A stretch of 64,000 nt of DNA, taken from the sequence record MW822008.1; one strand, given 5' to 3'. How positions within the stretch are numbered: the stretch's first letter is position 1; every line of letters begins with the position of its first letter. The position numbers and the translations under genes are program-made. This DNA is from Escherichia phage BF17. Below, in pieces: positions 3,301-29,254 of the stretch. The notes beneath the pieces are model-generated. The model worked only from the letters and a program-made list of their open reading frames with translations, searched no databases and was not told the origin of the DNA.

Positions 3301-3314
3301 TTTTATAATCTCCT

Positions 3315-5456: not shown

Positions 5457-5470
5457 TTATCAACCCTCTT

Positions 5471-6598: not shown

Positions 6599-6662
6599 AA
6601 TATTTCCCTTGTATGAGTTAATGTCATATACCAATATTTATCAGTACAAAATACATTTCGTT

Positions 6663-6682
6663 GCCATTAATAAATAAATGAA
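6663..6682 (+). promoter_or_regulatory. Late-promoter-like element (TAATAAATAAAT) upstream of the plus-strand 165/202/366-aa operon
   Basis: Resembles the T4 late promoter TATAAATA; a GATAAATATT-type element on the opposite strand at ~6631-6640 could serve the divergent fiber gene. Confidence 0.3.
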
Positions 6683-6707
6683 AGTTCACTACTAAAAGGG
6701 CTTAACA

Positions 6708-7205: not shown

Positions 7206-7214
7206 GGATTAGAA

Positions 7215-7823
7215 ATGAAATTAGAAACAGAACAACCAAAACTATTTGTTAAGGGTCATGTACTAATTACTGACGTTACTGATCCATCTAACCAAAAAAT
7301 CGTTTTGGATAAATCAAACGCAATTCACCCTGAAAATATGAGTACTGCTATTGCTAATGCGTTGGCTTATAATCAAGATAGTACTGGTATTCCTATTGGA
7401 TCTATTAGTGAGATGCGTTTTGGTAATGGTGGAACAGTAGTTTTGAGTACTGGTCGTATCACATACAAGAAACCACGCGTTACTTCTTTCGGTGGTCTAT
7501 ATTCTCAGACTTATCTGAAAAAAATCAACCCACGTATCTCTGCTGGTATTGATTCACAATATAACAACATTACAACTGTTCACATTCCAGGCCAAGCTTA
7601 CACTGATATTGTCTGTATTTGTACATTAGGTTTAGGTGAGCCATCTGACCAAGGTGTTAGCTCTGGTACTAGCATGGATGGGACATATGTATTTGACGAA
7701 TTGGGTTTATATACAAATGGTGATAGTGGTATTCCACTTACCCATATCATTTTTCACCCAGTTGAGAAAAGTGCTAACCGTGTTTTGCAAATCAAATACA
7801 CAGTTCGTGTCCAACTACAATAA
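7215..7823 (+). CDS. Hypothetical protein (202 aa), likely virion-associated
   Basis: RBS AAGGA 7 nt upstream; tightly packed between neighbours. Confidence 0.5.
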   Translation: MKLETEQPKLFVKGHVLITDVTDPSNQKIVLDKSNAIHPENMSTAIANALAYNQDSTGIPIGSISEMRFGNGGTVVLSTGRITYKKPRVTSFGGLYSQTYLKKINPRISAGIDSQYNNITTVHIPGQAYTDIVCICTLGLGEPSDQGVSSGTSMDGTYVFDELGLYTNGDSGIPLTHIIFHPVEKSANRVLQIKYTVRVQLQ

Positions 7824-7835
7824 TAAGGTGATGAT

Positions 7836-12353: not shown

Positions 12354-12391
12354 GTTTATTAATTAGAGTGACTACTCATTTAGGAGAATAC

Positions 12392-14680
12392 ATGAATCTT
12401 ACCCAATTGTTCAAAAAAAGCGACGAACTGGCAACTTCTCTGGGTCATACCTTCTTGACTATTGACCATCTAAGTGCTACAGTACTGACAATCGATAGCA
12501 TCAAAGCAGTGTTTGAGGATATGAACATCGATGCAGAGAAACTACACGGTCGTTTGATTGCATATCTGAAAAATACAGCATTCCCACATGCACCTAAAAG
12601 TGCTGATGGTGATGAAGCGAACCGCACATCACTTCTTGTGAACCGTGTAGTTCAGGAACTTTCTAAGAAATCAGTAATTGAGCAACTTAAACGTGATGAT
12701 TTCTCAATTGATGCTTATTTTGTACTGTTTGAGTGTTTGTCCTTCCCAAATACTGCACTAGAAGCAGCATTGCGTGAAGAGGGTATCACTTGTACTGAAG
12801 CAGCACGAACTCTTCAGAAGCACGTAGAAGCAATCGACAACGGAATTAACCTTCAAAGCATTAGTGATGAACCAACTGGGGAGAAAAAAGTGGCACAACA
12901 GCAACCATCGTCCAAACAAAAAGGTTTAGAAGATTACACCACTAACCTAACCGCACTTGCAAAAGAAGGTAAACTTGACCCAATGATTGGTCGCCAGAAA
13001 GAGCTTTCTGCACTGATTGAAACTCTGGCCCGTAAGACTAAGAAAAATGCTATCCTGACTGGTGAAGCTGGTGTTGGTAAAACGCAAATTATTGATGGTC
13101 TAGCACAGGCAATCGCTGATGGTGAAGTACCAGAGCATCTTAAAGATGTTGAAATTCTGTCTCTGAACGTAGGTGCACTGACTGCTGGTACTAAGTACCG
13201 TGGTGAGTTCGAAGAACGTATCGATAACCTACTAAAAGAACTGAAGAAACGTGAAAACACTATTGTGTTCATCGATGAAATCCATATTATGGTTGGTGCT
13301 GGTTCAGCAAGCAACGGTTCTATGGATATGAGCAACATGCTCAAACCTGCACTATCTCGTGGTGAGATTCGTGTAATCGGTGCAACAACTTACGATGAAT
13401 ATCGTAAAAACATCGAAAAAGATAGTGCACTAACTCGTCGTTTCATGAAAATTGATGTAGTTGAGCCAACAATTGATGAAACCCGTGCGATTGTGAATGG
13501 TTTGAAATCTACTTATGAAACTTTCCATAACGTAGAGTTCAGTACTGAAGCAATGGATGCAGTTATTACACTAAGTGATAAGTTCCTGAAGAACAAACAC
13601 TTCCCTGACAAAGCAATCGACCTAATGGATGCGGCAGCAGCGAAAGTACGTTCTCGTGAAACTGATGATAACATCATCACTGTTGCACTGATTCAAGAAG
13701 TTGTTGCAGGTATCGCAAACCTAGATATTAACGTGGTTGCTTGCACTGAAAGTGAACGTATGCGTAATCTACCAGATGCACTCCGTTCTCGTGTATACGG
13801 TCAAGAAGAAGCAGTACAGAAACTGGTTGATAACGTGATGGTAGCTCGTGCTGGTCTGCGTGATAAATCAAGTGTTCAAGGTGCATTCATGTTTGTTGGG
13901 CCATCTGGTACTGGTAAAACTGAAATTACCAAAGCACTGGCTGATGCAACTGGTTCTGAACTGATTCGTTTCGATATGTCCGAGTTTTCACAGGAACATA
14001 CTGTTGCTAAACTGATTGGTTCACCTCCAGGCTATGTTGGTCACGATTCTGGTAACGGTCTGCTACTCGACAAGATTGAGCAGTTCCCGAATGCAGTACT
14101 GTTGCTTGATGAAATCGAAAAAGCTGATCGTAAAGTACTACTAACCTTCCTACAGGTTCTGGACGAAGGACGTTTGACTGGTTCACAAGGTAAAACTGTT
14201 TACTTCAATAACGTAACTGTTATTATGACAACTAACCTTGGTGCAGCAGATTCAACCAAGCGTAGTATTGGGATGAGCGGTAGTGACACAGCACAAGATA
14301 AAGCGATTAAAGCATTCTTGCCACCTGAATTCATCAACCGTATCGATAGTATTGTGACATTCAAAGACCTAAGCAGCGAAGCGATTGACAGCATCATTGA
14401 TAAGTTCATGGGAAGTTTGAATGAACAAATCAAAGACCGCAAAGTTAAAGTTTCACTGACCAAAGCGGCACGTGAGTGGTTGGCAACAAATGGTGTTAAA
14501 GTTGGGATGGGTGCACGTCCAATGAAACGCACTATTGAGCAAAACATCCGTGTCCCACTAGCTAAAGAGATGTTGTGTGGTTCTCTGGTTAATGGTGGTA
14601 ACGTAACGTTTGATGTGATTGATGGTAAATTGGCTATCAAACCTAAACGAACTAAAGCAGTAGAAAAAGTTATTGCGTAA
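12392..14680 (+). CDS. clpA: ClpA-like AAA+ unfoldase (two nucleotide-binding domains, Clp N-domain, ClpP-docking loop)
   Basis: Start at ATG 12392 (RBS AGGAGA; the ORF track's 12368 is a GTG extension). Walker A GEAGVGKT (13061-13084) and GPSGTGKT (13899-13922); no ClpB-type middle domain; KRSIGMSG matches the ClpA IGL-type ClpP-binding loop (IGM at 14267-14275). Confidence 0.85.
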   Translation: MNLTQLFKKSDELATSLGHTFLTIDHLSATVLTIDSIKAVFEDMNIDAEKLHGRLIAYLKNTAFPHAPKSADGDEANRTSLLVNRVVQELSKKSVIEQLKRDDFSIDAYFVLFECLSFPNTALEAALREEGITCTEAARTLQKHVEAIDNGINLQSISDEPTGEKKVAQQQPSSKQKGLEDYTTNLTALAKEGKLDPMIGRQKELSALIETLARKTKKNAILTGEAGVGKTQIIDGLAQAIADGEVPEHLKDVEILSLNVGALTAGTKYRGEFEERIDNLLKELKKRENTIVFIDEIHIMVGAGSASNGSMDMSNMLKPALSRGEIRVIGATTYDEYRKNIEKDSALTRRFMKIDVVEPTIDETRAIVNGLKSTYETFHNVEFSTEAMDAVITLSDKFLKNKHFPDKAIDLMDAAAAKVRSRETDDNIITVALIQEVVAGIANLDINVVACTESERMRNLPDALRSRVYGQEEAVQKLVDNVMVARAGLRDKSSVQGAFMFVGPSGTGKTEITKALADATGSELIRFDMSEFSQEHTVAKLIGSPPGYVGHDSGNGLLLDKIEQFPNAVLLLDEIEKADRKVLLTFLQVLDEGRLTGSQGKTVYFNNVTVIMTTNLGAADSTKRSIGMSGSDTAQDKAIKAFLPPEFINRIDSIVTFKDLSSEAIDSIIDKFMGSLNEQIKDRKVKVSLTKAAREWLATNGVKVGMGARPMKRTIEQNIRVPLAKEMLCGSLVNGGNVTFDVIDGKLAIKPKRTKAVEKVIA

Positions 14681-14683: not shown

Positions 14684-14715
14684 AGAAAAGGAGAGCAAAT
14701 GCTCTCCTTTTTGTT
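14684..14715. terminator. Bidirectional intrinsic terminator
   Basis: aaaa-AGGAGAGC-aaat-GCTCTCCT-ttttgtt between the clp gene (+) and the giant gene (-); almost the same sequence recurs at 60449-60480. Confidence 0.75.
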
Positions 14716-17700
14716 ATTTAACTTCTAATAGATTTTTAATGTCATTACCACTTATTTGCAAACTATCGGAGTAAACAGATAGTTCGATTGGATAACTGTT
14801 AACACTATAACGTTTTAGTAAATTAACTTTACCTAAGTTCAAGCCATTAAATGAATATGTCACATTCTCTTTAAAGTCGTGTTCTGCACTATACATTACC
14901 CCACGGAGTAAGTTATTTGCAAAACGTACTTCAACTTTTTCAAAACCAAGAGAAATAATATCATTCATACTTGCACCAGCACCAGATAGAACATTATTAG
15001 TAACACTATATGGACTAACTGAATCTGGTTGTGAAACATAAGTAGCATTTTCTTCACTGATAGCAGTAATGTTAGTTACTGTTCCACCAACTACACCAAT
15101 ATATGTATCACTAACTAGTGGATATGCATATTCCCATACCCCGTCAGCATTCAGTACTGGTTGAATAATACCAACATCATACTCGAACACGTTAATTTCC
15201 ACACTATCAGTCATTTTGGTTCTCACTAACTCACTAAGAACACCTGCACCAGTAATTGGTAAGTTATATCCGTTATCAATGGTAACACCATCAACTTCAA
15301 ATATCTCGTTAGACACTACCCAAACATCAACGTCATCTGGTGTAATTCCATCATTATAAGAACCACCGTATAGTGTTGTGTCGTAGAATACTTCATAGTT
15401 CATTGCGTCGATAGCATAATTTCTATTTGTTTCATACAACTTAACACCATCAACCAAGAATTCTGGATCAGCAAAGGTTCTAATACGAACGATGTTCAAT
15501 GCTAGAGGTATTGCTGGTTCATTCTGTTGTTGTTTAGTGATGTTATCATAACGAAGCACAACTCCAGTACTATCTAGTAGTTCTACAGTTCCGTTCGCAG
15601 TGTTTCTTACTGTGTACAAGGTTGGTGTGGTGTCAGTTTTGATTTTTGATACACTCAAGATGGTTTCCCATGCATTGTTTTGGTATCTCACATAATCTTC
15701 ACCATCAGTTGTGAATATCATAACCTTATCACCATCAGATAGGGTATTGTCAATTACTTCAGCTTCTGTATCACTAACAATTGATTTAATTTTATAGAAG
15801 TATTTTTCATCATACTTACTGTATGATTTACTAATATCATTTTCAATCTTAGCGTAAGAAGGAATACTAACAATTGCTTCTGTTGTTTTATAAGGGTTGA
15901 TAATAACCATACCTTCAGTTTTATATCTACTATTGTCTCTCAATTGAACTAGTGAAACACTATTGAATCCATAACCATCAACTGTGAAGCGAATCTGACC
16001 AATCTTTCTTCCTGATGGGTTAATATCAGAAATGTCGATTATGTACGGATCTACTTCGTCACCTTCAACTTCCCATTTTAACTCGGAAGTTTGTGATTCA
16101 AGTGCTAGGTTATCAAATGCATTCATATCATCGTAGTACTTAGCATCGGTGATGCTATCTAGGATGTGCTGATAATCACTGTACATTGGGTTATTTCTAT
16201 CAAGAGGTAAGTCATCAAGATTTATTTCTGCCAATTGAACTAGTTGACCGTCAGTTATGAATTTGTCTTCCATGAAATCATCAATGCTTTGGTCATCTGG
16301 GATACTCTCGTATACACCATTAACATTAACATAAACATATTTTCGTGGCATCATAGTAAATGCATGAATATCAATAGGCATTCTACTTAGTATTTCTTCA
16401 GCCTTTTCATAATGGTCGGTAGCATCTTTGTCATACAAACCACGCATACCGGACAATACATGAATTGCGTCATTGTAGAATCGTTGATTTCCATTTTCAT
16501 CTACATGGCGATATGAATAAACACCATATTCAACTTCAAGTATAATTCTAACTTCATCATCAGTTGCAGTAGTATTGTTTTCTTTAATTAAAGAAACATA
16601 CTTATTATACAACTCACTACTAACTTCAAAGTAACCAAAGTTATAATCAGTACTGGATGCATAACCAAACGGTAGTCTGGTACTTGGATTATCATCATAG
16701 GTTAACCCACTAAATCCACATCCAACCTCATCATGAATTACTTCATCATCTGCACCTGTGTACAATTTCAAACGGTTAGAGAGTGTGTTATACTGAACAT
16801 AATGATTTACGTCATTAAACATTTCATTTTGTGTTGATTCTTTATATACACGATTCAACGTTTCTGTGAATTCTGCGGTTGCTACCAAATCATCTGCATG
16901 GTCTGCATACCATTGGTTAACACCGTAAGCAATCCCTAGAGTTACGTTCAATTCTGGGTAATACAATTGCATCTGATAAGCAACCAATAGGTCGAAATCT
17001 TCATCACTGTATTCTGGGAATGTATATTTGTAACGTTGTAATTCAAAATTACTAACAACATCTTGTGCATTAGATTGATATTTCTTATTCACTTCTTCCA
17101 ATACATCAACACTTGCCAAATTATCATTTGGTTTACATTGAGTGTTGTCGTAGTGCATGATAACATCAATTTCTTGGAAACGGCGATTAGGTGTTACGAA
17201 ATCACTTGGCAATTCACCAACTTGCTCCCAACGTTGAGTTACCTCATTGAATTGAGCATATTCATAATCCCAAATGTCTTTTTCCGTTTTAACCCAAGTC
17301 CCATCTGCAAATATATAGCCATTAGGATCTAAATCATTACACAAACCTTTAATTAAATCATCATCTGAAGTTTTCTGTTCAATCTGGGAACGAATCTTAG
17401 TTCTATATGGTTTAACTTCTTCAAAGTACTCAACGATTTGATTAATCAAGTTGTCGTTGGAATAGTTCTGTACTAATGATTGTTCTAAACCTACAATATA
17501 AATGTAAGATGTTTTGAATACCCAATCAACAACGCTTTGTTCTACGTGAACATACTTAACCATATCAAACACAATTTCACTCTGATGTAAGTCGAATGAG
17601 TTCTTCAATAAAGCTAGTGCTTTACGAACGTTAATCTCACGATTACTCAACGAACCATTAGCATCACGAACTGTATAGTCAGCGTATAACATATCATTCA

Positions 17701-20700
17701 ATTCAACTGTACTATTTTCACGACCAATTGCTTTCCAGTAAACTGAATCACGTGATTGTGCTTTAATGTACAATGTCCAGATGCCATCAACATCTGTAAT
17801 TCTGATAATGTCACCAACTTGATAGTTCTTAGTGTTTGCATCTTCTAGGCTGGATTCTTGTGTATATGCAGTATTTTTATCGTATCCAATATCATACCAA
17901 TCTGCTAGTGACCAGTACTGGGTCATGTCCAATGAAGTTCCTAGTGCTTCAACATAGTCTGATTGTTTAATCATTTTCTGTTGACCTTCACCACGGTTTT
18001 CCAATGTAATGGTAACCACACTACCAGCACTTGATGGACTATTCATTAGATGAATATAACCATTAGCATCAATATGCACAAAATATACAGAGCTAGTTGA
18101 TAGTGGGGTAGGTAATACACCACTAGTACTTACTAGTACTGCGTCGTTTTCTTTGAACTTGTCACTTTCAGGTGCAATGACTAATTCACTATTGTAAGTT
18201 AGCACACGATATGATACTTCATTCGGGTTAACTTCAGTAGTTTTAACATTAAACACTTCGTCCATTAGAACAGTGTTAGTTGTTATATTCTGTGAGCGAT
18301 AATAGTTATTTGCACTTTCTACAAAGTTTCTACGAGCTTCAATTACATCTTGGAACCAAGTCTTATTAGAACCTAAACCGTTTGGTACTAAAGGATATAG
18401 TAAATCAATAACAGTTCCTGATTCAGTAGTTTCTTGACCAATCATAGAATTCCACATAGAAGTCCAGATTGATGGATTGAAGTTATAGCTATCACCTTCT
18501 TTACATAATTGATACTGGTCATGTTTAATAACTTCAGTATTATCCATGTAATAAGAAACAGTTAAAATACTTGTGTCATCGTTGACTTCAAATTGCATAT
18601 TACTTAGAATGAACGAGCTTTCATTGATTGGTGCAAACCAAGGAATGTTAAGCTGTGCTGGTTCTTTAATAATACGAGCAATATCAGTACAAGATTTAGT
18701 TCTGGAATGTAATGGTGGTACATAAATTGTATCACGAACCCAGAAATAGTATTTTGTAACATAAGTATCAGTTGTGCTATCATATTCTAAGAACGTACTA
18801 TAATTATCTTCCAATGCGGTTCCGCTTGGTAGGTACATAGTGTTGTTTTTATTTTTGTTAGCAACGTCTTTACAGTATTTGTCCCAGTTATATGGTTCAA
18901 CTGGTGAACATACCCATTCAAGAACATCAACAGTACTGTGCGGTAACAATCTACCCCAGTTATAACGTTTATATTCATTTGTTGCATCAACATCCACATT
19001 ACCGTCAGCATCATAGATTGCACGAGTGTAATCTAAGTAGAAAGCAGTGCTGGTGTTCCACCAAACCTGACCAACTTTATCAGCACCCCATGCTTGAATC
19101 AATTCACCATTGCTGTTGTATTGTGCTGGGTCAACTGGAGATGTGTAGGTAACGTTCTGCATCGCTGCACCAGGAATAACACCGTTGATTGGGTCAAACA
19201 CGTTTAGGTACAACGCAGTAATGTTAGTACGTTCATCATATGTAGTTGGACGGTCAAACAAAGTACTTTGTGGAGCTTTAAAACTATATTTTCTGTCAAT
19301 GTATTCCTGACGCATCTCTTCAGTACTGAATCGTGAAACATAACGATACAAGCGTGGGCGAGTATCAGGATCAGTGAAGTCAATAGTGATTGAAGTGTCA
19401 AACGGAACTACCATAACTCTAGGGTCATTACCCGCAGTATAATATTGACTTTCTATAGTCAATGTATCTGGCATAAAGTTAGTTTCATCAACAAAGTAAT
19501 AATAATCACCATCATTTAGTGGGATATCATCACTTAGAGTTACTTTACAGAATTGTTCTGCATATACATCGGTATTTTCAATTGGAACGATAGAGAGCAT
19601 CTCAACTTCAGTGTCTACTAGTTCGAAAATATTCCACAAATCATTACCATCTTTAAACATCCATACAGAATCTGGGATTTCACCACTGTTATTCATATAA
19701 TTGATACGATCATTATATGCAGTACTGAAATCTTTAGTAACGTATGAAATTTCATCTAGTGTTACAGGACCAATGTCTGGAAGTTGGATATTCTCACTTC
19801 TTCCACTACGCATTGGGAATGAAAACTTACCATTTGGACGAGTAATCCAGCGTGAGTCAACCCCTTGTTCACCGTAATAAACAATACCATTACCAGTACC
19901 ATTTGATGTAGCATTAACATCAAACGAAACCATCTGTGGTTGTTGTTTAAATTGGTCATTGATTAGTTTAAATTGTAGATTTTTCTTACCATTGATATTA
20001 CCATAAGTACCAATCTTAAATGCCCATTCCTGAAGTGCTTTATATTCATCAGTGTCGTAAGATTTAGAAACGCGTAGTACTTTTTCCATTACTTGGTTAG
20101 TACCTTTGTCATGAATGAATCCTTTATAGAAATCAACACGACTAACATCACTACTAATCATACGTTGTAGATAATCACGAGTTTGATAGCCAATCAAGTG
20201 ATTTGATAACTCTTGAAGCTGAACATCACTCACAGGAGTTTCACTATTATAATATAATTCAAAATCAGTTACTAATTTTTCAAATGATGGTAAAGTTCCT
20301 GCTTCTAGGATAATGAAACCAGGTGCTTGTAGGCGACCAGTCCATGACCCAGTAATGTAACCATACATTTTAATCAATTCTTGAATAGCACCATAAGTTG
20401 GTTGGTAAATGTAATCACCAAAGATAGTTTTATCATCAAAAACAACTGCGTGTTCATATGAACTTAGGCTCAAACGAATCAACGCCATACGTTTTTGTGA
20501 TTCAGATGTAGTTCTCACTGTGAATACGTTACCGATACGCGAAGTTTCGATTTCATATTGACGGATGCCTTGGTTTTCATCATCGAGTAGTGACCAAACA
20601 CCACCACTATTCTGTGTAACAGATTGAACTGAACCAAAATCCGCACCAAATTTAGCATTAGCTGCACTTGGAGTACAGGAGATGAACTCACCAGTACTTA

Positions 20701-23700
20701 AATTATTCTGACTCCAAATAACAAAGTCTTTAGCAATAGTTGTCCAGTCTTGTTGAGTACCACTATCATTTACATCTTCAAAAATCCAGCCATGTTCTTT
20801 TAGATATTCACCATATCCACAAATGAAAGTATAAACTTCTTGGTATGTATTGAATATTTTACCATATTCTAATGTACCTTCAGATTTCCATTCATTGTAA
20901 TGAACAACAGTTCTGTCTTCCAATTTAAGAGTTACTTTTCTTCCATTTTTAACTGGAATTTTATATTTAAATTTAGCACCAACTAAATCATAACCATCAA
21001 TTTGATATGCACTACCATTCCAAGTAATTTTTACTGCACTCATTTGCTCATCGCGAATGTTATTGGAACGAACTAGACCGATAGTTTGGTTTTCTTGTGA
21101 AATCAAACCGAAAGATTTAGCAGTGAATGTCAATTGGTCTGCTTTAGTAAAGCCACCAATTTTGTGAGCGACATTGACATAAGAAGAACGAACAACGTCA
21201 CCGTATTTGGTGGTAATGTTCTTATTCTGATACATCAAATAGTCACTAACAAACATTTGATAACCGATAGTACGGGTGTTTTTCTCACCATGTACTAATG
21301 TAGTACTGTCAAAGTTTAGACGCTTACGGGTTTCACCATAAAGGAACTGTGAACCATCAGTATAAACTGGTTTAAGGTTATCATTACGGGTATCCCAGTA
21401 ATAGTTTGCAAACTGTGCTGGTTTTGCTTTGTATAGAAGAAGCATTTGGTCATAAGCAAACATCGCAGTGTTCATGTAAGTGAATTCCATGTCACCCATG
21501 TCACCATAAGACCACGGTTCTGCACGATGATCTAAATTACCACTAACAAGACCTAAAACTTCAGGTGCAATATACTCAACTTCACAAATATCAATACCAG
21601 TACTGGTTTTCTCGCCAGTCTTAGTGATTTTAAATGGCTGTACACCGAAACGCTTGTATTTGTCATATTGACCACGGCGTTCACCTGACAAAATAGTACC
21701 AGTACTGCTATCACCGATAGTACCATCAATATCCCACAATCCACTTGGGACCAAATCACCATTTTCATTCATTACTAGTGCTTCATACACATAAACAACA
21801 TCACCCTCACGTTCACCAACTTGAACTGCGGTTGGTTCGTATTCTTGGTTCCACCAAGTAGGACGTTGAGAGAAGCCCATCATTTCCCACGGATGGGTTG
21901 CTGGACGATATGTGCCATATTGGTCAGTATAGATTGCACGCCATGAACCACGAGCAGGAATTTCAGTACGTTGACCATCAACAACATAATAACTACCAGT
22001 ATAGTTCCAAGTTCTCCAGTTATTTGCATCATAATCATGAGTACTGTTACTAATGCCATTGGTTGCTGTGAAGTTAATGTAACCACGTAGTAATAGAGTT
22101 TTCTTTTCTTCTGCACTATAATCAGTACCAGTGAAATATGGAGTTGGGAATAGGTCTTCACTGTTTAGTACTGGTTTATAATCAATATCCTTGAAAGTAA
22201 GATCAATACTATTAAAGATACGATTTTCCAATTCAAAAACTACGTCATCCATTTTATCAACACCATTGATAACACGGTATGCTTTTGAAATAATACCAGT
22301 ATGACTGATATTATAACAGCTAGATTTACTACCAGCAGTTAAGAATGTTGCTTTTTGTGGTGTATAAGCTTGCAAAATACCCAAGAACTGTGGAGTTGGT
22401 GGGACAAATGCACGAATAAACCCAGCAGTGCTTGCAACGTTGTCATAGTAGAATGGGAATGTACTATCACGTCCCATATTAATAGCTGTTAGAATCGCAT
22501 CTACGATGTTTGATGCACTATTACCAAGAAAAGCACTTGGGTCTTCTTCATACAAACGAAGCATTTGAGTGTTGAACTTGTTAATGAAGCGGAAGTATTC
22601 TGCTTGCATAAACATGATTGATTCAAACAAATCAATATCTTCATTAGCGGTATGTGCCATTAGTGGTAACATGGACGCTTCGTTTTGAATAATTTTAGTG
22701 CCTACACCATTATTAACCAAACCAGCAGCCAAACGTTCTTCGTAATTGTTAAAGTCATCAGCAGAACCAGATGTAATATTCTTTTGAATAATATCTTGGA
22801 AGTGCAGGGTGTAATCACCTTGGTTGATGTATTCAATGTTTGAATTATATGGGTTATTTTGTAGATTAATTGGAACTTCATATGCACCCAACTCTTTATT
22901 AGGAGTGATAGTGCTACTATAAGTTCTGATTTGTACAACAGAATCTTCATCCAAATCAACAGAGCTATCAATTGTAATACTTTGTACTTGATTATTAACT
23001 ACAGTTTTTGTGTATTCTTTTATTTCCACACCATCAACAACTAGTTCGATAATATCATCAGAATTATCTAGTACTTTTTGTGCCAATTCAAATGTATGAT
23101 TGTACTTAACGCTTTGTACCCCATCACCAACGATAACATGCCAATCAAGATATGTTTCACGTTCTGCTTTGTAATATTGATAAGTTCTGTCAACTTCAAT
23201 TACATAAGCATACATTCCTTCAACTGGGTCTTTGAAACTTTCCATGTCATAAACAGTACTGAACACGCGGAACATTACTGTACGTTCAACCTGTGGAGTT
23301 TGTTTAACATATTGTTTGGAGTATTCAGTACTACGAACCCAATCAGTTTCTAGGTTCATTGTATTACCTTCACCAATTACGTTATAGTAATATAGTCCAT
23401 CAATTTCAACTTCCACACCCAAATGCTCGTAAGTATAACGAGTTGATTGTAGGAAATTCTCATATGTGTAATAATTGTAATCACCTAGTTCAATATTATA
23501 ACCATAAACGCTATCAGTTGCATAATTATAGTTAATTTTAAAACCAAATAGTGAAGAACCAGTAAAAGTACTTGATGGATAGGTAGTAGTGTTGTTTAGT
23601 TTAACACCATTACGGTCATACAATTGGAATTGTGGAAATACGTTCACAGAAGTTTTAGACTGTGCTTGAATCCAATGAGAACCGTCCCAATACATGGAAC

Positions 23701-24685
23701 TGTTACCAAATTCATTACCTTTGATAATAAGAACTACGTCACCATCTTGTGGTTCACCACTCGGACGGCTTTCAGATTCTTCGTCTGGATCTAATGCTAG
23801 ACCATACACACGTGTTCCATCTTGCATACGTTTAACATATACTTTATAAATTCGGTTGTTTTCACCATTGTTACCAATACTGGTGAAAAGAATACGCATA
23901 CCATCTTGTGGAATAATACCATCAATACGTATACCGCTGTTAATATCTTTTTGTACGATATCTTCAGGTTTAATAATATCAGAGAACAAATCAACTGTCC
24001 CACGGAATTTAGTACCGTAGTTCATTAGTTCGATATTTTTATTGTATTCGATAATTGGTGCACGAGCACGAACAAAACGGGAATCTTGCATTAGTTCTTC
24101 AGTTAGGATAGTACCATCTTCTAAAGTTTCACCTAATGTGTACCAGAAGTTTTGTAGTGACCAAGTGTTACCATTTTCTGCACCACGTTCCATTACAATA
24201 TAATCTGGAGTTGTGATATTATAGCTATTCTTGGAATCCCATAGGTATGAACTGTAGTTGTTCATTTTATTTGGGTTAATTGGTGGGGTCCATGAATAGA
24301 ACTTACCATTAAACAAACGGCTTTCATTTTCGGTTAGTGCACCGTAATGATTCATATAGCCAACTAGATCATCATAAAATTGAATTGAACGAATGCTGGA
24401 GTCATCATTTCTTGAGACATACGCAGTGGACAACTGATATAGTTGACGTGCGACTGTTGACTCGTGTAAGAAGATGTTCCCTGCTGCTGCCGGAGAACCC
24501 ATGTCACCAATGTAGCCGTCAACTAATTCGTTTTCAGCCGGATTAAACCATTGTTGGATAACATCATCACTGACTTTCTGAATATCTTCTAAGCCTTGCA
24601 TCCACTCAGGCAATCTTTTTATGAAAAGCTTCTTCTGTACTGCTTCAGCCATCTGTGTAGGTTGAAACTTAAAATTATTAGTCAT
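14714..24685 (-). CDS. Giant virion protein (~3,320 aa), baseplate or tail-fiber associated by synteny
   Basis: Single uninterrupted ORF. Preferred start ATG 24683-24685 (MTNNFKF..., RBS GGAG 9 nt upstream); the ORF-track start 24715 lacks an RBS. Follows the gp6-like gene in the baseplate operon. Confidence 0.7.
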   Translation of the reverse strand: MTNNFKFQPTQMAEAVQKKLFIKRLPEWMQGLEDIQKVSDDVIQQWFNPAENELVDGYIGDMGSPAAAGNIFLHESTVARQLYQLSTAYVSRNDDSSIRSIQFYDDLVGYMNHYGALTENESRLFNGKFYSWTPPINPNKMNNYSSYLWDSKNSYNITTPDYIVMERGAENGNTWSLQNFWYTLGETLEDGTILTEELMQDSRFVRARAPIIEYNKNIELMNYGTKFRGTVDLFSDIIKPEDIVQKDINSGIRIDGIIPQDGMRILFTSIGNNGENNRIYKVYVKRMQDGTRVYGLALDPDEESESRPSGEPQDGDVVLIIKGNEFGNSSMYWDGSHWIQAQSKTSVNVFPQFQLYDRNGVKLNNTTTYPSSTFTGSSLFGFKINYNYATDSVYGYNIELGDYNYYTYENFLQSTRYTYEHLGVEVEIDGLYYYNVIGEGNTMNLETDWVRSTEYSKQYVKQTPQVERTVMFRVFSTVYDMESFKDPVEGMYAYVIEVDRTYQYYKAERETYLDWHVIVGDGVQSVKYNHTFELAQKVLDNSDDIIELVVDGVEIKEYTKTVVNNQVQSITIDSSVDLDEDSVVQIRTYSSTITPNKELGAYEVPINLQNNPYNSNIEYINQGDYTLHFQDIIQKNITSGSADDFNNYEERLAAGLVNNGVGTKIIQNEASMLPLMAHTANEDIDLFESIMFMQAEYFRFINKFNTQMLRLYEEDPSAFLGNSASNIVDAILTAINMGRDSTFPFYYDNVASTAGFIRAFVPPTPQFLGILQAYTPQKATFLTAGSKSSCYNISHTGIISKAYRVINGVDKMDDVVFELENRIFNSIDLTFKDIDYKPVLNSEDLFPTPYFTGTDYSAEEKKTLLLRGYINFTATNGISNSTHDYDANNWRTWNYTGSYYVVDGQRTEIPARGSWRAIYTDQYGTYRPATHPWEMMGFSQRPTWWNQEYEPTAVQVGEREGDVVYVYEALVMNENGDLVPSGLWDIDGTIGDSSTGTILSGERRGQYDKYKRFGVQPFKITKTGEKTSTGIDICEVEYIAPEVLGLVSGNLDHRAEPWSYGDMGDMEFTYMNTAMFAYDQMLLLYKAKPAQFANYYWDTRNDNLKPVYTDGSQFLYGETRKRLNFDSTTLVHGEKNTRTIGYQMFVSDYLMYQNKNITTKYGDVVRSSYVNVAHKIGGFTKADQLTFTAKSFGLISQENQTIGLVRSNNIRDEQMSAVKITWNGSAYQIDGYDLVGAKFKYKIPVKNGRKVTLKLEDRTVVHYNEWKSEGTLEYGKIFNTYQEVYTFICGYGEYLKEHGWIFEDVNDSGTQQDWTTIAKDFVIWSQNNLSTGEFISCTPSAANAKFGADFGSVQSVTQNSGGVWSLLDDENQGIRQYEIETSRIGNVFTVRTTSESQKRMALIRLSLSSYEHAVVFDDKTIFGDYIYQPTYGAIQELIKMYGYITGSWTGRLQAPGFIILEAGTLPSFEKLVTDFELYYNSETPVSDVQLQELSNHLIGYQTRDYLQRMISSDVSRVDFYKGFIHDKGTNQVMEKVLRVSKSYDTDEYKALQEWAFKIGTYGNINGKKNLQFKLINDQFKQQPQMVSFDVNATSNGTGNGIVYYGEQGVDSRWITRPNGKFSFPMRSGRSENIQLPDIGPVTLDEISYVTKDFSTAYNDRINYMNNSGEIPDSVWMFKDGNDLWNIFELVDTEVEMLSIVPIENTDVYAEQFCKVTLSDDIPLNDGDYYYFVDETNFMPDTLTIESQYYTAGNDPRVMVVPFDTSITIDFTDPDTRPRLYRYVSRFSTEEMRQEYIDRKYSFKAPQSTLFDRPTTYDERTNITALYLNVFDPINGVIPGAAMQNVTYTSPVDPAQYNSNGELIQAWGADKVGQVWWNTSTAFYLDYTRAIYDADGNVDVDATNEYKRYNWGRLLPHSTVDVLEWVCSPVEPYNWDKYCKDVANKNKNNTMYLPSGTALEDNYSTFLEYDSTTDTYVTKYYFWVRDTIYVPPLHSRTKSCTDIARIIKEPAQLNIPWFAPINESSFILSNMQFEVNDDTSILTVSYYMDNTEVIKHDQYQLCKEGDSYNFNPSIWTSMWNSMIGQETTESGTVIDLLYPLVPNGLGSNKTWFQDVIEARRNFVESANNYYRSQNITTNTVLMDEVFNVKTTEVNPNEVSYRVLTYNSELVIAPESDKFKENDAVLVSTSGVLPTPLSTSSVYFVHIDANGYIHLMNSPSSAGSVVTITLENRGEGQQKMIKQSDYVEALGTSLDMTQYWSLADWYDIGYDKNTAYTQESSLEDANTKNYQVGDIIRITDVDGIWTLYIKAQSRDSVYWKAIGRENSTVELNDMLYADYTVRDANGSLSNREINVRKALALLKNSFDLHQSEIVFDMVKYVHVEQSVVDWVFKTSYIYIVGLEQSLVQNYSNDNLINQIVEYFEEVKPYRTKIRSQIEQKTSDDDLIKGLCNDLDPNGYIFADGTWVKTEKDIWDYEYAQFNEVTQRWEQVGELPSDFVTPNRRFQEIDVIMHYDNTQCKPNDNLASVDVLEEVNKKYQSNAQDVVSNFELQRYKYTFPEYSDEDFDLLVAYQMQLYYPELNVTLGIAYGVNQWYADHADDLVATAEFTETLNRVYKESTQNEMFNDVNHYVQYNTLSNRLKLYTGADDEVIHDEVGCGFSGLTYDDNPSTRLPFGYASSTDYNFGYFEVSSELYNKYVSLIKENNTTATDDEVRIILEVEYGVYSYRHVDENGNQRFYNDAIHVLSGMRGLYDKDATDHYEKAEEILSRMPIDIHAFTMMPRKYVYVNVNGVYESIPDDQSIDDFMEDKFITDGQLVQLAEINLDDLPLDRNNPMYSDYQHILDSITDAKYYDDMNAFDNLALESQTSELKWEVEGDEVDPYIIDISDINPSGRKIGQIRFTVDGYGFNSVSLVQLRDNSRYKTEGMVIINPYKTTEAIVSIPSYAKIENDISKSYSKYDEKYFYKIKSIVSDTEAEVIDNTLSDGDKVMIFTTDGEDYVRYQNNAWETILSVSKIKTDTTPTLYTVRNTANGTVELLDSTGVVLRYDNITKQQQNEPAIPLALNIVRIRTFADPEFLVDGVKLYETNRNYAIDAMNYEVFYDTTLYGGSYNDGITPDDVDVWVVSNEIFEVDGVTIDNGYNLPITGAGVLSELVRTKMTDSVEINVFEYDVGIIQPVLNADGVWEYAYPLVSDTYIGVVGGTVTNITAISEENATYVSQPDSVSPYSVTNNVLSGAGASMNDIISLGFEKVEVRFANNLLRGVMYSAEHDFKENVTYSFNGLNLGKVNLLKRYSVNSYPIELSVYSDSLQISGNDIKNLLEVK

Positions 24686-24722
24686 TTTTGGACTCCATAT
24701 AATTCGTTCATTCATTTGATTT

Positions 24723-24730
24723 ATTTATGA
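24723..24730 (-). promoter_or_regulatory. Late-promoter-like CATAAATA (minus strand)
   Basis: Sits between the terminator 24731-24757 and the giant gene RBS. Confidence 0.3.
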
Positions 24731-24757
24731 TATAAAAAAGACGTTCCGAAGAACGCC
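24731..24757 (-). terminator. Intrinsic terminator with UUCG tetraloop (minus strand)
   Basis: Minus strand reads GGCGTTC-TTCG-GAACGTC-TTTTTTAT just after the 1153-aa gene stop. Confidence 0.65.
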
Positions 24758-24765
24758 TTAATGTG

Positions 24766-27700
24766 TTATGAACCAATGTTAATGTTACTCTTAGCCAAGG
24801 AATTGACTATCTGTACGTTATCAACTGATGCAGTACTTAAGAAAATCTGGTCAGAACGTGAAGGGATTTCAAATAGTGATCCAAATTTAGAGTTAGGGTT
24901 TTGAGCTACGATAACAATAGTACTAATATGTCGTCCTAATTGGGAGTGAATGTATGTACACAAGTCTGTGTAATAGAAACTTTCACCAAAATCCCAGTTG
25001 TCAACATTAAAATACTCGTTAGTTAGTGCTACGACATTTTGACGAATTTCATCATCACTCATTGTACTGTTAGGCAATTTGACGACTTTAAAATCTGCTT
25101 TATAATCTTCAGCAGCACTCGCACCAAATAATGGTAGATATTCTGCACTATGCCAAATAATACTGTCACTGATGACTATTTTTTGTTCAACTTCTTTAAA
25201 AATGTCTTTCAATTCAACAGATGTTGGCGGTTTAGGCATATTACCTTGTGTTCCATTCTTCAACCATACATCAACTTCAGTTTTGTATGAATTGGTTAAT
25301 ACATACATGTCAATCAAGTTTGTTCTACTTGGGTCAATGCGATTATCATCTGGTGCATAATGTTTCCAGTGGAAATCAATACCAGTTCTTGCATTCGTTT
25401 TTACGGTATATTGTGAAGTTACATCTTTATAACCATAATAATCTAACTTTTGGTTAACATCAGCATTAGTACCGATATTAACAATAGCACGATAAAACGC
25501 AAGTTCAGGAGTTGCAGCAGTTGTATCATCAGAATAGGTCAAGTTCTCAATTAATTGGTTTAAACGGTCATTATTATTACCAACAGTTTGTTCAATGAAG
25601 TAATATTTACCATCATAGTTAAAGCCAACTATAAAGCCTGAACCTTTACTATAGATACCACTCAATGTTGTTGATCGAATAGCATTGTTGCGAACAAATT
25701 CACTTCTCTTATACGCATTAGTTTCTGCAAGTGCCTGATCCATTGTATAAGCCCATGAAGAATCAAGAATAGTGAAAGTATCATTCGGTAATGACAGTAC
25801 TGATATAGTGAAATCATCGTTTTCTTGGAAAACCAATATACCACCATATTTAACTGAATCTTCACCAGTCCAATTTGGTACAATTTCTCTGAATTGATTA
25901 GGTTCTAGTGGGATTCCATTACTATCAACGTTTTCAGAGGTGATAACCACACGAGAACCATCAAGATACCCGTTTTCTTGTTGAATTGTGTCATAAATTT
26001 GGAAATCTATGTTACTTGTCAACCCAGCATTACTATTGCTTGTGGTATTTGATGATAAAATTTCAATTTTGTCACTTTGAACACTACCAGTACTAATATC
26101 AGTTATCTTTTTAGAAGAAACGAAGTAAAAACGAACTTTATCACCACCAACGAACACATATTCAACGCCATTCGCATCAAATTCCCAGGTTTCAGCAGTA
26201 TATTTGATGTTAATCATAACAAGAACTTCATTTCCATTATAAGAAATAGTATCTTCATCAGTACTGATTTCTAATGGAATCCAAGAAGTTGTTTCTTTAT
26301 CATGAATAATAACAAAATCTGTCTTTTTATCAAGCATTGCAGCGATTGCTTGCACTTCGACACTATTAAAACGTGTTCTGTATTGTAAAATGTACTCTTG
26401 TGCTTGCATATTTGATGAAACTGAAGTACTTAGAACGTAATATCCATTATCAAGAACACTAACAATACTAGCCCACACAGTAGTTCCGGCATTTGAAAAC
26501 TTAATCAACGTACCAACTTGATAATTTCCGAATACGTTACCTGTTGCCCCCATAATACGACCATACGTATTAGTTGCGTAATTAGAATTGTATTCAGGTG
26601 TCCATTTTTGTTGAATTTCAATACCAATTGTATTCGGTGGATATGCTTGATAACGTTGGATTACAGCATTCTCACCAATCAATGGCTGAATATTATCAAT
26701 TACAATACTAGCATTTGTTTTGGTAGTTGGTAATTGTAAAGATTTATTAAATTGTGTGTTTTCTTGATACATTGAACCATCATCACTAAACACATCAGTG
26801 TTTTGATACTTACCAGTTGGATCATTAATATCAATGAATCGTGACTGTCCACTATATAAACGGTTAATTGCTTTAGATTTAAGAACTGTGTTACCCAAAC
26901 TCAACGGAGCAATGTTATAGTCTTCGCCGTTAACAAAACGGTTTTGAGTGTAATACATTTGTGGAGCACGAGCCTTAATTTGTTCAATTGTTTCTGCACT
27001 TTGTGCACGATCTGATTCATATTGCAATGTGAAACGAATATCCAAAGTACTGGATTCATAGCTTGATTGTGTTTTGGTTCTATAGGTGTATTTTACACTT
27101 TTGTTCTGGATTTCAGACGTTTTAATGTTGTATGTTTCACCATTACTAACACGATACCATACACGATACGTCCCACGAGGAACAACACCACTACGAGAAT
27201 CAGGATACTTAATAGTAATCTGGTCTTTATCACGAGTTGTGACAGCAAAGATTGTTTTTAGTTGACGGTTAACAGTATTGTATGCGATACTTTCCATAGA
27301 TGGAACTTTGGTCCATTTAGTACGTACAATACCATCTTCGTTGATTTCCTGAACCCAAACATCAGTTTCGTTGATATTATCTACGTTGATGTCTTGGATA
27401 CGGTTTTCTTCACGAATATTATATTGGTAATCTTGGTATGTCAATGTCCCTTGAACAAAATAAACGAAGAAACCAGTATTTGGTGAACTAAATCCGTTAC
27501 CATCATTCTGATAAACGATATATTTTTGCTCTTGTGGTTCAGGGTGACGCTCTTCAACACCAACTGCTGTAATATCAGGGTTGACAACTTCAAATGTCAT
27601 CGATTCACCATTAACTGTAGCTGTGAATGGAAGACTTGGTGCTGACATTGGAATTGTATTCATACGATATAGCTGACGAGAAACACCATTGATATCGATA

Positions 27701-28227
27701 CGTTTAACCGGATTACCAAACTGGTTAGTACTGACAAATGAACTGTTCATAACTAGAATGAAGTTCTCATACCAGTTTGTGTCCATTGGGTCATTCCAAC
27801 GAATGATTTTATCCTTAAGTGATTCGTTAAAACTATTACGAACGTCTTGGTTGGTTTTTATTTCTGTTAATTTAGCAACTGCACGACCTGGATATGAACG
27901 GCGTGGAGAGTAAGAAATCATTTTTGCGAGTTTCAGTACTGATGCACGACGAGTAGCAGTATCTAGGAAGTTCTCACGAGTGTTTAAATCCATACGGAAT
28001 GCTAAGTTCTGTCCTAGCATAGAAATGGTATCTAGAATAAAGATGAACTGGTCGTTTTCGATCCAGTCGTTGAAAGAATCTGGGTACGTAGCACGTAGAT
28101 AGTCAATCATACTTTGACGGATTGTATCAAAGTCATAAGCTGTTAGATTGATCTTATAAAAGCTTTCATATACTTGAGTCCAATCTTCACCAGCGTATAA
28201 ATTTGATTGCCTTTTTTGTTGTGACAT
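24766..28227 (-). CDS. Baseplate wedge protein, gp6/Baseplate-J-like (1153 aa)
   Basis: RBS AAAGGAA; N-terminal region (YDFDTIRQSMIDYLRATYP...LDTISMLGQNLAFRMD) resembles the gp6/J N-terminus as I recall it; lies downstream of the gp25-like gene as in conserved baseplate modules. Confidence 0.6.
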   Translation of the reverse strand: MSQQKRQSNLYAGEDWTQVYESFYKINLTAYDFDTIRQSMIDYLRATYPDSFNDWIENDQFIFILDTISMLGQNLAFRMDLNTRENFLDTATRRASVLKLAKMISYSPRRSYPGRAVAKLTEIKTNQDVRNSFNESLKDKIIRWNDPMDTNWYENFILVMNSSFVSTNQFGNPVKRIDINGVSRQLYRMNTIPMSAPSLPFTATVNGESMTFEVVNPDITAVGVEERHPEPQEQKYIVYQNDGNGFSSPNTGFFVYFVQGTLTYQDYQYNIREENRIQDINVDNINETDVWVQEINEDGIVRTKWTKVPSMESIAYNTVNRQLKTIFAVTTRDKDQITIKYPDSRSGVVPRGTYRVWYRVSNGETYNIKTSEIQNKSVKYTYRTKTQSSYESSTLDIRFTLQYESDRAQSAETIEQIKARAPQMYYTQNRFVNGEDYNIAPLSLGNTVLKSKAINRLYSGQSRFIDINDPTGKYQNTDVFSDDGSMYQENTQFNKSLQLPTTKTNASIVIDNIQPLIGENAVIQRYQAYPPNTIGIEIQQKWTPEYNSNYATNTYGRIMGATGNVFGNYQVGTLIKFSNAGTTVWASIVSVLDNGYYVLSTSVSSNMQAQEYILQYRTRFNSVEVQAIAAMLDKKTDFVIIHDKETTSWIPLEISTDEDTISYNGNEVLVMINIKYTAETWEFDANGVEYVFVGGDKVRFYFVSSKKITDISTGSVQSDKIEILSSNTTSNSNAGLTSNIDFQIYDTIQQENGYLDGSRVVITSENVDSNGIPLEPNQFREIVPNWTGEDSVKYGGILVFQENDDFTISVLSLPNDTFTILDSSWAYTMDQALAETNAYKRSEFVRNNAIRSTTLSGIYSKGSGFIVGFNYDGKYYFIEQTVGNNNDRLNQLIENLTYSDDTTAATPELAFYRAIVNIGTNADVNQKLDYYGYKDVTSQYTVKTNARTGIDFHWKHYAPDDNRIDPSRTNLIDMYVLTNSYKTEVDVWLKNGTQGNMPKPPTSVELKDIFKEVEQKIVISDSIIWHSAEYLPLFGASAAEDYKADFKVVKLPNSTMSDDEIRQNVVALTNEYFNVDNWDFGESFYYTDLCTYIHSQLGRHISTIVIVAQNPNSKFGSLFEIPSRSDQIFLSTASVDNVQIVNSLAKSNINIGS

Positions 28228-28283
28228 AATTTATTCCTTTAAATCAGTAAAGTACTAGTTCAGTACTGGGAATTATATATAGA

Positions 28284-28293
28284 AATATTTATC
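28284..28293 (-). promoter_or_regulatory. Late-promoter-like GATAAATATT (minus strand)
   Basis: About 60 nt upstream of the 1153-aa gene start and downstream of terminator 28297-28325. Confidence 0.3.
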
Positions 28294-28296
28294 CAA

Positions 28297-28325
28297 AAAG
28301 AAAAGCACCCCGAAGAGTGCTTTTA
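28297..28325 (-). terminator. Intrinsic terminator with UUCG tetraloop (minus strand)
   Basis: Minus strand reads AGCACTC-TTCG-GGGTGCT-TTTCTTTTT after the gp25-like gene. Confidence 0.65.
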
Positions 28326-28329
28326 TAAT

Positions 28330-28725
28330 TTACAAAGATGATACAGAATAGGTAGCCATTCTGTTGTTACTTCTTGCATCAAAAACTATAGTTAATTCTT
28401 CAAGAGTATTGAGAACAACATATTCAAGTACTATATCCATCTGATAACCGTACTCAATTCTTGATATTTGAAGTTTCTTTAAGCTTAAACGTGGGTCCAA
28501 GCTAATAATTCTACGGGCATCTGCTTCCAAAAGGTTGATTGTATTATAACCATCCAATTCAAATAGCAAATCCCACGCAATGAACCCATAATCAGCATCA
28601 AATGCACGTTCACCTTTTTTTGTATTGAAATGATTCATTAAATCCTGACGAACCAATTCACTGTCATACAATGTTTCAGTTCTTCCAACTACTGGAGTTG
28701 AAAAACCTTTAAAAACAATTGCCAT
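28330..28725 (-). CDS. Baseplate wedge protein, gp25/GpW-like (131 aa)
   Basis: Size, position next to the spike and gp6-like genes, and motifs (GERAFDADYG, DARRIISLDPR) resembling gp25; RBS AGGAAAC. Confidence 0.65.
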   Translation of the reverse strand: MAIVFKGFSTPVVGRTETLYDSELVRQDLMNHFNTKKGERAFDADYGFIAWDLLFELDGYNTINLLEADARRIISLDPRLSLKKLQISRIEYGYQMDIVLEYVVLNTLEELTIVFDARSNNRMATYSVSSL

Positions 28726-28740: not shown

Positions 28741-29229
28741 TTATACGGATTCGACGATGCGAGCCATCTTCTCCGCTCTGGATGTGGTTTGTTTGTACCA
28801 CGAACTATCACGCATTTCTTTACCAGCAGTTTTATAATCCCCACGACCGAGAGCAGCCATCGCTTTTTTGAAATTTAAAACTTTTGATTTACCCATTTGG
28901 AACACCATAAACCACAATACACGCTGAACCTGTACTGGAGCAGTCATTCCAAATTGATCATAGATTGATTTTGCGTCATTGTAAGCGGTCTGAGCATCTT
29001 TTATAAGGAGAGCATCAGCTTCTGCTTCAGTGAGTCCATTTTTGAAACTTTCACCCTTAAGTACAAGGTGACCGTAACCAATGGTATCAAGACCTAGACT
29101 GTCTTTATATACCCAAAACTTATCATTTTTAAAATAACCAAGTTTTTTCTGATACGCAATAGTACCTTCAAATTCTTTAATTTCTTTAAAAAATTGTTCG
29201 TCGGTATTTTTGATTTCCCATTTACTCAT
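28741..29229 (-). CDS. e: Endolysin, T4 lysozyme-like (GH24 muramidase)
   Basis: EFEGT...DSLGLDTIGYGH catalytic Glu/Asp/Thr block and MVFQMG helix typical of T4 lysozyme; RBS AGGAAA; paralogous to the C-terminal domain of the adjacent spike. Confidence 0.85.
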   Translation of the reverse strand: MSKWEIKNTDEQFFKEIKEFEGTIAYQKKLGYFKNDKFWVYKDSLGLDTIGYGHLVLKGESFKNGLTEAEADALLIKDAQTAYNDAKSIYDQFGMTAPVQVQRVLWFMVFQMGKSKVLNFKKAMAALGRGDYKTAGKEMRDSSWYKQTTSRAEKMARIVESV

Positions 29230-29246: not shown

Positions 29247-29254
29247 TATTTATA
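29247..29254 (-). promoter_or_regulatory. T4-type late promoter TATAAATA (minus strand) for the endolysin gene
   Basis: Exact TATAAATA in the minus orientation, preceded by the TTTCAGTACT block seen at other late promoters; an AGGAA RBS follows. Confidence 0.5.

Follow-up and report, generated by a model that had tools for sequence, protein, structure and literature searches.

Escherichia phage BF17 carries, within the 64,000-nt stretch of sequence record MW822008.1 analysed here (the window), a minus-strand gene for a protein of 3,323 residues that lies directly behind the gp25-like and gp6-like genes of a baseplate cluster. We refer to this protein as the giant. Megablast assigns the window to the jumbo myophages of the Asteriusvirus group. 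Its identity is 99.7% with Escherichia phages Ecwhy_1 and vB_Ec-M-J and 82% with 121Q, PBECO4 and phAPEC6, and a single megablast match spans at least 80% of the giant open reading frame (ORF) in 34 records. The minus-strand features of the locus, listed in order towards the giant and ending with the element beyond its stop codon, are as follows.

Head of the series, minus strand: virion protein of 243/273 aa, function unassigned
104 aa, minus strand: gp53-like wedge subunit (phrog_7145)
31944-34199, minus strand: virion protein of 751 aa without assigned function
29267-31930, minus strand: gp5-like hub, 887 aa (OB fold, M23 peptidase, lysozyme)
28741-29229, minus strand: second lysozyme, 162 aa, a paralogue of the hub lysozyme domain
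28330..28725, minus strand: gp25-like sheath initiator / wedge protein, 131 aa (PF04965)
24766..28227, minus strand: gp6-like baseplate wedge protein, 1,153 aa, presumed partner of the giant (phrog_219, E 3e-21)
24738..24759, minus strand: terminator-like hairpin with T-run between the gp6-like and giant genes (hairpin search)
24722..24729, minus strand: CATAAATA, identical to the T4-type late promoter box TATAAATA at 7 of 8 positions and 37 nt upstream of the giant start codon (inferred promoter)
24686..24715, minus strand: in-frame 10-codon upstream extension to an earlier ATG, without a Shine-Dalgarno sequence (profile and GenBank start at M11)
24693..24696, minus strand: GGAG Shine-Dalgarno sequence, 7 nt upstream of the ATG at 24685 (sequence)
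14714..24685, minus strand: giant coding sequence (CDS), 3,323 aa plus TAA, PHROG 10938 family (ORF, profile match, substitution rates; virion mass spectrometry of orthologues)
14685..14712, no strand assigned: bidirectional terminator-like hairpin directly past the stops of the giant and of a convergent ClpA/B-like gene (hairpin search)

Downstream of the giant lie the convergent ClpA/B-like ATPase gene, a gene for a 502-aa virion protein and one for a gp15-like protein.

A first-pass annotation, made from the sequence alone, had described an uninterrupted ORF of about 10 kb and 3,320 aa at 14714-24685 that follows a gp6-like gene, and had argued that it is not an artefact. Both statements were borne out. 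The frame runs without interruption from 24715 (first ATG) or 24685 (second ATG, M11) to a TAA at 14714-14716. At 36.7% G+C, one stop is expected per ~15 codons, and the probability of 3,333 stop-free codons, the length from the first ATG, is ~3e-102; the G+C content of the ORF (0.35-0.37) is the same as that of the rest of the window. The ATG at 24685 appears to be the better start because GGAG stands 7 nt upstream, the match to the PHROG family profile sets in at residue 11 of the long form, and the GenBank annotations of vB_Ec-M-J and 121Q begin at the same M11; the 10-codon extension is probably not translated. From M11, the product has a mass of 380.4 kDa, is acidic (isoelectric point 4.5) and is 3.2 times the size of T4 gp7, close to the earlier estimate of about three times.

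Selection acts along the entire gene. Computed on a codon alignment with 121Q gp582 (86% amino acid identity, synonymous divergence dS ~1.0), which contains one compensating indel pair mid-gene, the ratio of nonsynonymous to synonymous substitution rates (dN/dS) was 0.084 overall and 0.03-0.14 in every 250-codon window, the last quarter being slightly higher (0.09-0.14); the whole length is therefore under purifying selection. One record seems to tell otherwise: in a close relative, Escherichia phage CMSTMSU (MH494197, marked UNVERIFIED in GenBank), the giant gene is annotated as 11 CDS (L002, 1001-10986). Compared with our ORF, that record lacks single bases at 15 sites, almost always within homopolymer runs, and has no inserted bases; its ClpA gene is also fragmented. 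This pattern identifies the split as sequencing error. The annotation of the giant gene is also split in the draft Salmonella phages SD-1_S14 and SD-2_S15. An assembly artefact in BF17 was considered and excluded.

Published mass spectrometry detected two orthologues in virions. In phAPEC6, gp245 (381.88 kDa, 17 unique peptides) is listed right after gp244, a “baseplate wedge” protein, and gp244, the gp6-like orthologue, is itself in the virion (PMC7247149). In CBB, CBB_236 (21 peptides) neighbours CBB_237, likewise named “baseplate wedge” (PMC5259590). Virion presence is thus established for these orthologues, from phAPEC6 and CBB rather than BF17 particles.

The giant belongs to a large family of uniformly giant proteins. 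It matched phrog_10938 over its full length and colinearly (E = 0, 5476 bits), long-form residues 11-3330 aligning with profile positions 1-3324. A word-indexed search recovered 237 homologues, the 120 listed of which were all 2,780-5,638 aa long, with identities down to ~24%. An exhaustive phmmer search with residues 1201-2400 against 1.84 billion representatives returned 1,140 clusters (50% identity) at E <= 1e-3 and 705 at E <= 1e-30. Among 140 newly returned representatives, 130 had at least 2,500 aa, the longest reaching 6,281 aa, and in most of them the matched stretch started near target residue 1,200, colinear with the query. By tblastn, the gene is present in 92 cultivated phage records, including RaK2, K64-1, GAP32, CBB, Serratia BF, Erwinia and Yersinia phages, Xanthomonas XaC1 and XacN1, PA5oct-like phages, Atu_ph07 and RsoM2USA. 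Family members are giant across this wide range of phages, and on these comparisons the giant size is therefore ancestral in the family. Named members are 121Q gp582 (86% identical to the BF17 protein), PBECO4, phAPEC6 gp245, RaK2_0070 and CBB_236, the conserved core being 70% identical to RaK2 and 64% to CBB; PA5oct gp128 is probably another, and its gene adjoins those for gp129 and gp130, annotated as baseplate wedge and baseplate protein. The giant is a hallmark of the RaK2/121Q-like jumbo myophages and, beyond them, of a far broader clade known from environmental sequences.

The position of the gene is conserved along with its size. It lies directly downstream of gp25-like and gp6-like genes in the window, in vB_Ec-M-J, in 121Q and in two metagenomic relatives of ~25% identity (L005 and L006). 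In the latter two, the order of products is ~258 aa, ~102 aa, ~750-890 aa, gp5-like hub, gp25, gp6-like protein of ~1,130-1,150 aa and giant, followed by tail-fibre genes (Gp34_trimer, Peptidase_S74, Collar). In L005, the start of the giant gene and the stop of the gp6-like gene overlap by 8 nt, and in L006 the start comes 2 nt after the stop, an arrangement that would fit translational coupling.

One sublineage departs from the single-chain rule. A search with the N-terminal 450 aa returned two short proteins, leading to P0309 (559 aa) on an 8.1-kb contig (L007, with the split gene at 471-8127). At the beginning of this contig lie the last 140 aa of a gp6-like protein, which share 56% identity with residues 1013-1152 of its BF17 counterpart. 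Directly after it, ORF A corresponds to giant residues 4-437 (50% identity) and ends in a unique 124-aa tail. There follow a 62-aa ORF, an 860-aa ORF without a family (weak RCC1 hint), a hairpin, and a Shine-Dalgarno sequence with ATG. From there, ORF B matches giant residues 444-1483 (41% identity) and reaches the contig end. A protein from another sample, P0121 (2,818 aa), begins 81 nt into its contig and can be aligned with giant residues 444-3280. It has 66% identity with ORF B and the same first residues, MSQF.NNLHSVW; ClpB-like and gp15-like genes come after it. Taken together, ORFs A and B and P0121 therefore indicate that one sublineage encodes the giant as two polypeptides, split at residue ~440, with the N-terminal part kept beside the gp6-like gene. 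An apparent ~80-residue duplication flanking the L007 insertion, read from PHROG envelopes, was rejected, as BLASTP shows none. Because 110 of the 140 representatives reach giant residue 120 or lower in the same chain, the single chain is the rule. The possibility raised by the first-pass annotation, that related phages carry this region as several genes, thus failed for CMSTMSU and held for this sublineage, which truly has two genes.

We next consider what the protein resembles. The earlier annotation had proposed a fusion of wedge components with fibre or enzymatic domains, and had suggested windowed profile searches and comparison with the gp7, gp8 and gp10 families; these matched no known domain and no wedge family. 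Pfam gave no real match for the whole protein or for ten overlapping 500-aa windows, only noise at E <= 5, and no enzymatic domain was found in the Pfam windows; NCBIfam gave zero matches. Windowed PHROG searches returned the protein's own family alone and no gp7 PHROG. Against PDB sequences, phmmer with the giant found no match, and hmmsearch with a 26-sequence family profile found only ribosomal L18 noise (E 0.13). Direct comparison with T4 gp7 gave a BLASTP E of 0.8 and an hhalign probability of 0.3-0.4%, and the family profile reached at most 0.5% in hhalign against each of T4 gp53, 5, 6, 7, 8, 9, 10, 11, 12 and 15. In the reverse direction, none of 121 giants was matched by phmmer with the T4 wedge proteins as queries. 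Self-BLAST found no internal sequence repeats, and neither Pfam nor self-BLAST found fibrous repeats, beta-helix or fibre/depolymerase domains, the only trace being weak local matches to fibre N-terminal domains; the models described below extend this to fold for residues 1-2400.

Structure prediction, also suggested earlier, yielded a compact multi-domain protein and no known wedge fold. Two AlphaFold2 models, built with 22 maximally diverse full-length homologues as alignment, together cover residues 1-2400. Residues 1-1200 were modelled as a compact, mixed alpha/beta, multi-domain body with a predicted local distance difference test score (pLDDT) of 85.8 and a predicted template-modelling score (pTM) of 0.80; residues 1201-2400, also mixed alpha/beta and multi-domain, scored 76.6 and 0.51. 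Neither model is fibrous or an extended helix, and the N-terminal helices at residues 10-47 were left unplaced in the monomer model. In Foldseek searches of the first model against BFVD, the matches were chunks of family members, such as Vibrio phage 2.275.O (template-modelling score, TM, 0.83) and Atu_ph07 (0.75), and proteins of uncultured phages with 13-20% identity and TM 0.46-0.66. At the level of models, the family-member matches validate the predicted fold independently. Outside the family, only local matches of ~100-200 residues to tail-fibre proteins were obtained in BFVD. T4 gp7 was absent from both top 60 lists of the fold search, with no fold similarity to a solved gp7-type protein, and no profile or (for residues 1-2400) fold similarity was found to T4 gp8, gp9, gp10, gp11 or gp12. 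As modelled, with mostly high confidence, residues 1-2400 have no solved fold relative.

Coverage and identity profiles, alignments and models divide the protein into the following parts (all on the minus strand).

17336..24685, minus strand: conserved core, residues 1-2450, common to all distant giants; mixed alpha/beta multi-domain body (coverage and identity profiles, models)
14717..17335, minus strand: lineage-specific C-terminal module, residues 2451-3323, alignable in closer relatives only; dN/dS 0.09-0.14
23375..24685, minus strand: N-terminal module, residues 1-437, a separate gene in the split sublineage
24545..24658, minus strand: four short N-terminal helices, residues 10-47, with L25 and P26 invariant and pLDDT 30-68 (alignment and model)
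20039..20665, minus strand: residues 1341-1549, which include some of the best-conserved sequence of the family, pLDDT about 31-48
19295..19492, minus strand: insertion hot spot, residues 1732-1797; relatives carry up to ~1,500 extra residues here, including FG-GAP repeats

Within the core, conservation dips at about residues 450-550, 950-1050, 1650-1800 and 2150-2250. Residues 1401-1550 are among the most conserved in the family (~40% identity to distant members), and the flanks of the poorly modelled segment 1341-1549 are confidently modelled; this segment may be an inter-subunit interface that folds only against its partners. The helices at 10-47 are a candidate contribution to the helical bundle of the wedge core, by analogy with the systems discussed below. 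Besides the hot spot, relatives carry inserts near residue 149 (~135-157 aa), near residues 1259/1459 (CBM_5_12) and in the C-terminal region. The distant giants P0091, P0096 and P0111 contain CBM_5_12, FG-GAP_2 and Laminin_G_3 domains as well as weak CBM_X2 and T7-tail-fibre-N matches. Where mapped, in P0091 and P0096, the domain matches sit at discrete sites or in the C-terminal region. This placement suggests plug-in adhesion modules.

In contractile tails and related systems, a wedge consists of a gp25-like protein, two gp6-like chains and one outer gp7-like chain, as in AlgoCIS (PMC8894135). The wedge of A-1(L) is (gp31)2-gp32, whose outer subunit, gp32 (residues 1-107), adds N-terminal helices to the core bundle (PMC10966104), and in phiKZ, (gp87)2-gp128, the outer subunit likewise contributes N-terminal helices to the bundle (PMC13250141). 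We propose, with a probability of roughly 0.6, that the giant is the outer wedge subunit in the gp7 slot and, in the same chain, the peripheral fibre-docking platform of a contractile-tail baseplate. From gene position and anatomy we infer its baseplate location, its stoichiometry, its contact with the core bundle and its docking of fibres. It is the best candidate for the outer subunit because it holds this gene slot across a wide clade, is a virion protein and has unplaced conserved N-terminal helices, and also because its first ~440 residues can be encoded separately beside the gp6-like gene and no other candidate was recognised in the block. One copy per wedge would give six per virion, about 2.3 MDa. 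The N-terminal module would anchor to a dimer of the 1,153-aa gp6-like protein, its helices probably joining the core bundle of the wedge. The conserved globular body of 2,450 residues would form the peripheral baseplate, a platform built from many proteins in T4 and phiKZ. Facing outward would be small beta-domains that resemble adaptors for fibre attachment, together with the insertion hot spots and the ~870 variable residues of the C-terminal module; these parts could dock the many tail fibres and tailspikes of this group, touch the cell surface, or both. By our arithmetic, the baseplate of CBB, measured as 36 x 15 nm (PMC5259590), has ample room for six giants (2.3 MDa) together with twelve gp6-like chains (1.6 MDa). 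The giant yielded fewer peptides per kDa than the gp6-like protein in phAPEC6, and lower sequence coverage in both phAPEC6 and CBB; this is weakly consistent with a copy number equal to or below that of the gp6-like protein.

Several points weigh against this assignment. No sequence or fold similarity to T4 gp7 or to any gp7/TssG-type protein was detected, and equivalence to gp7 therefore rests on gene position and on the elimination of alternatives. Mass spectrometry places the orthologues in virions without specifying the baseplate, in any phage. The N-terminal helices are short and only moderately conserved. The fold queries were whole 1,200-residue chains with aligned residue ranges unreported, which may hide small-domain similarity, and the models stop at residue 2400, so that residues 2401-3323 could hold a fibre-like or enzymatic fold.

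The alternatives differ in how much of this assignment they retain. An unlikely but serious one keeps the platform and drops the wedge: the giant would be a peripheral scaffold for fibre docking, attached from outside as phiKZ gp27 and gp139 are, and another protein would complete the heterotrimer with the gp6-like dimer. The gene would then have little reason to hold its slot directly after the gp6-like gene, with stop and start overlapping or abutting even in distant relatives, or for its N-terminal part to stay beside that gene in the split lineage; moreover, the syntenic block holds no alternative candidate. That the giant is instead a receptor-binding fibre, a tail “hair” or a secondary receptor-binding protein is improbable. 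The C-terminal module does vary by lineage, relatives do carry carbohydrate-binding and FG-GAP inserts, Foldseek gave weak matches to tail-fibre proteins, and these phages bear unusual hairy fibres (PMC7247149). However, the core is compact and globular (pTM 0.80) rather than fibrous and lacks sequence repeats, 2,450 residues are kept across hosts from Escherichia to marine bacteria, unlike in receptor-binding proteins, and even the C-terminal dN/dS is just 0.09-0.14.

We regard the proposal of the first-pass annotation, in which T4-type wedge proteins such as gp7, gp8 and gp10 have been fused to fibre or enzyme domains, as very improbable. The hhalign probabilities against every T4 wedge protein, the lack of Pfam, NCBIfam and PDB sequence matches, and the failure to find an enzymatic domain or internal repeats all speak against it, as does the giant state being ancestral over 1,140 clusters, with unfused precursors absent among the top matches. 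For residues 1-2400, where no T4 wedge fold was found, the idea is largely refuted at the level of sequence and predicted fold. Least credible of all is a tape measure or an internal ejected protein, for which one can cite that the largest phiKZ gene is a putative tape measure and that the giant is a virion protein without a known position in the particle. An alpha-helix rises 0.15 nm per residue. A helix of 3,323 aa would thus span ~500 nm, compared with tails of 94-123 nm (PMC7247149, PMC5259590); the models are compact and mixed alpha/beta, and the gene follows gp25 and gp6 rather than lying between the tube and hub genes.

Compared with known systems, the giant is the same protein as the RaK2-like virion structural protein of PHROG 10938, full-length colinear and in the same gene position, with nothing substantive differing. 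It shares with T4 gp7, P2 gpI and TssG the gene order gp25, gp6, X, presence in the virion, N-terminal helices that possibly join the core bundle, and the expected role of a large multi-domain protein linking wedge and periphery, whereas its size and its lack of detectable sequence or fold similarity set it apart from T4 gp7. T4 additionally needs gp8, gp9, gp10, gp11 and gp12, homologues of which were not found in the window: tblastn of T4 wedge proteins recovered gp15, the lysozyme domains of gp5 and, within the 104-aa ORF, a weak match to gp53, and no further homologue, gp7 included. The phiKZ platform, (gp87)2-gp128 with gp26/27/127/130/139/157, uses many copies of at least six separate proteins (PMC13250141), while here a single 380-kDa chain appears instead. 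Afp12, Pvc12 and Alg12 offer a precedent for wedge functions merged in one chain, and their variable outer “gp7-like” part docks fibres and is an evolutionary hot spot (PMC8894135); in BF17, however, the gp6-like protein is a chain of its own, and the giant resembles none of these three proteins. A bolder proposal, which we hold tentatively and at somewhat short of even odds, is that one 380-kDa chain, with folds unrelated to solved structures, serves as outer wedge subunit and whole peripheral platform, replacing T4 gp7/8/9/10/11 and the phiKZ networks. It would then be the defining innovation of a very large, mostly uncultured jumbo-phage clade (>1,100 clusters, members up to 6.3 kaa), with the hot spots and the C-terminal module as plug-in sites of host adaptation.

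Part of this was on record. The gene is catalogued as PHROG 10938, and ~90 genomes label it “hypothetical protein” or “virion structural protein”. One UniRef entry carries the T4 gp7 name, “Baseplate wedge initiator”, and the CBB paper mentions the orthologue as “the largest ORF”, used to anchor genome maps (PMC5259590). In the literature on RaK2, CBB, phAPEC6, PA5oct, phiKp24, fEgEco12 and phiKZ, we found no role or structure assigned to it. New here are the extent of the family and the consistently giant length of its members, the division into core and variable parts, the insertion hot spots, the 2,400 residues without a solved fold relative, the rejection of the fusion idea and the natural split at ~440. 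RaK2/121Q-like jumbo phages are in development for therapy and have the most elaborate branched fibre systems known. The giant is the largest gene in these genomes, and its product is in the virion without a Pfam domain or solved relative. It is the obvious candidate for the platform that attaches these fibres to the baseplate; the literature names no partner for the RaK2 fibre anchor gp528.

The surroundings of the gene offered further observations. Exact TATAAATA boxes lie at 29247-29254 (minus strand), just upstream of the 162-aa lysozyme gene, and at 35292-35299 (minus strand), at the head of the baseplate cluster. The number of T4-type late promoter boxes in the window, five found against seven expected, is not above chance; their placement alone is suggestive. 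A gp55-like late sigma factor gene adjoins the cluster. The ClpA/ClpB-like double-AAA+ ATPase (770 aa, 12368-14680, plus strand) converges on the giant gene with a common terminator, an arrangement kept in 121Q, vB_Ec-M-J and the P0121 contig of the split lineage and not in the distant L005 and L006. The ATPase may serve as chaperone or unfoldase in the assembly of very large structural proteins.

Upstream, the 162-aa lysozyme matches phrog_13211 positions 727-885, that is, the C-terminal lysozyme domain of the 887-aa hub, and the hub, with a weak M23 peptidase match besides its lysozyme, may carry two wall-degrading activities. The 751-aa virion protein, for which no family was found outside this phage group, could be a gp27-like hub protein by position or a tape measure by length (~113 nm as a helix; tails ~94-123 nm). 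Between the gp25 and gp6-like genes, 121Q encodes gp584 (L004, 7721-8485), an HNH endonuclease annotated as group I intron associated, where BF17 has only ~100 nt (28228-28329). Finally, the colanic-acid-degrading tailspike (3315-5456, minus strand) is encoded by one 713-aa ORF in the window, as in 121Q. The annotation of vB_Ec-M-J (L001, 31259-33401), at 99.7% identity, divides it into two CDS, which probably reflects a frameshift or sequencing difference.

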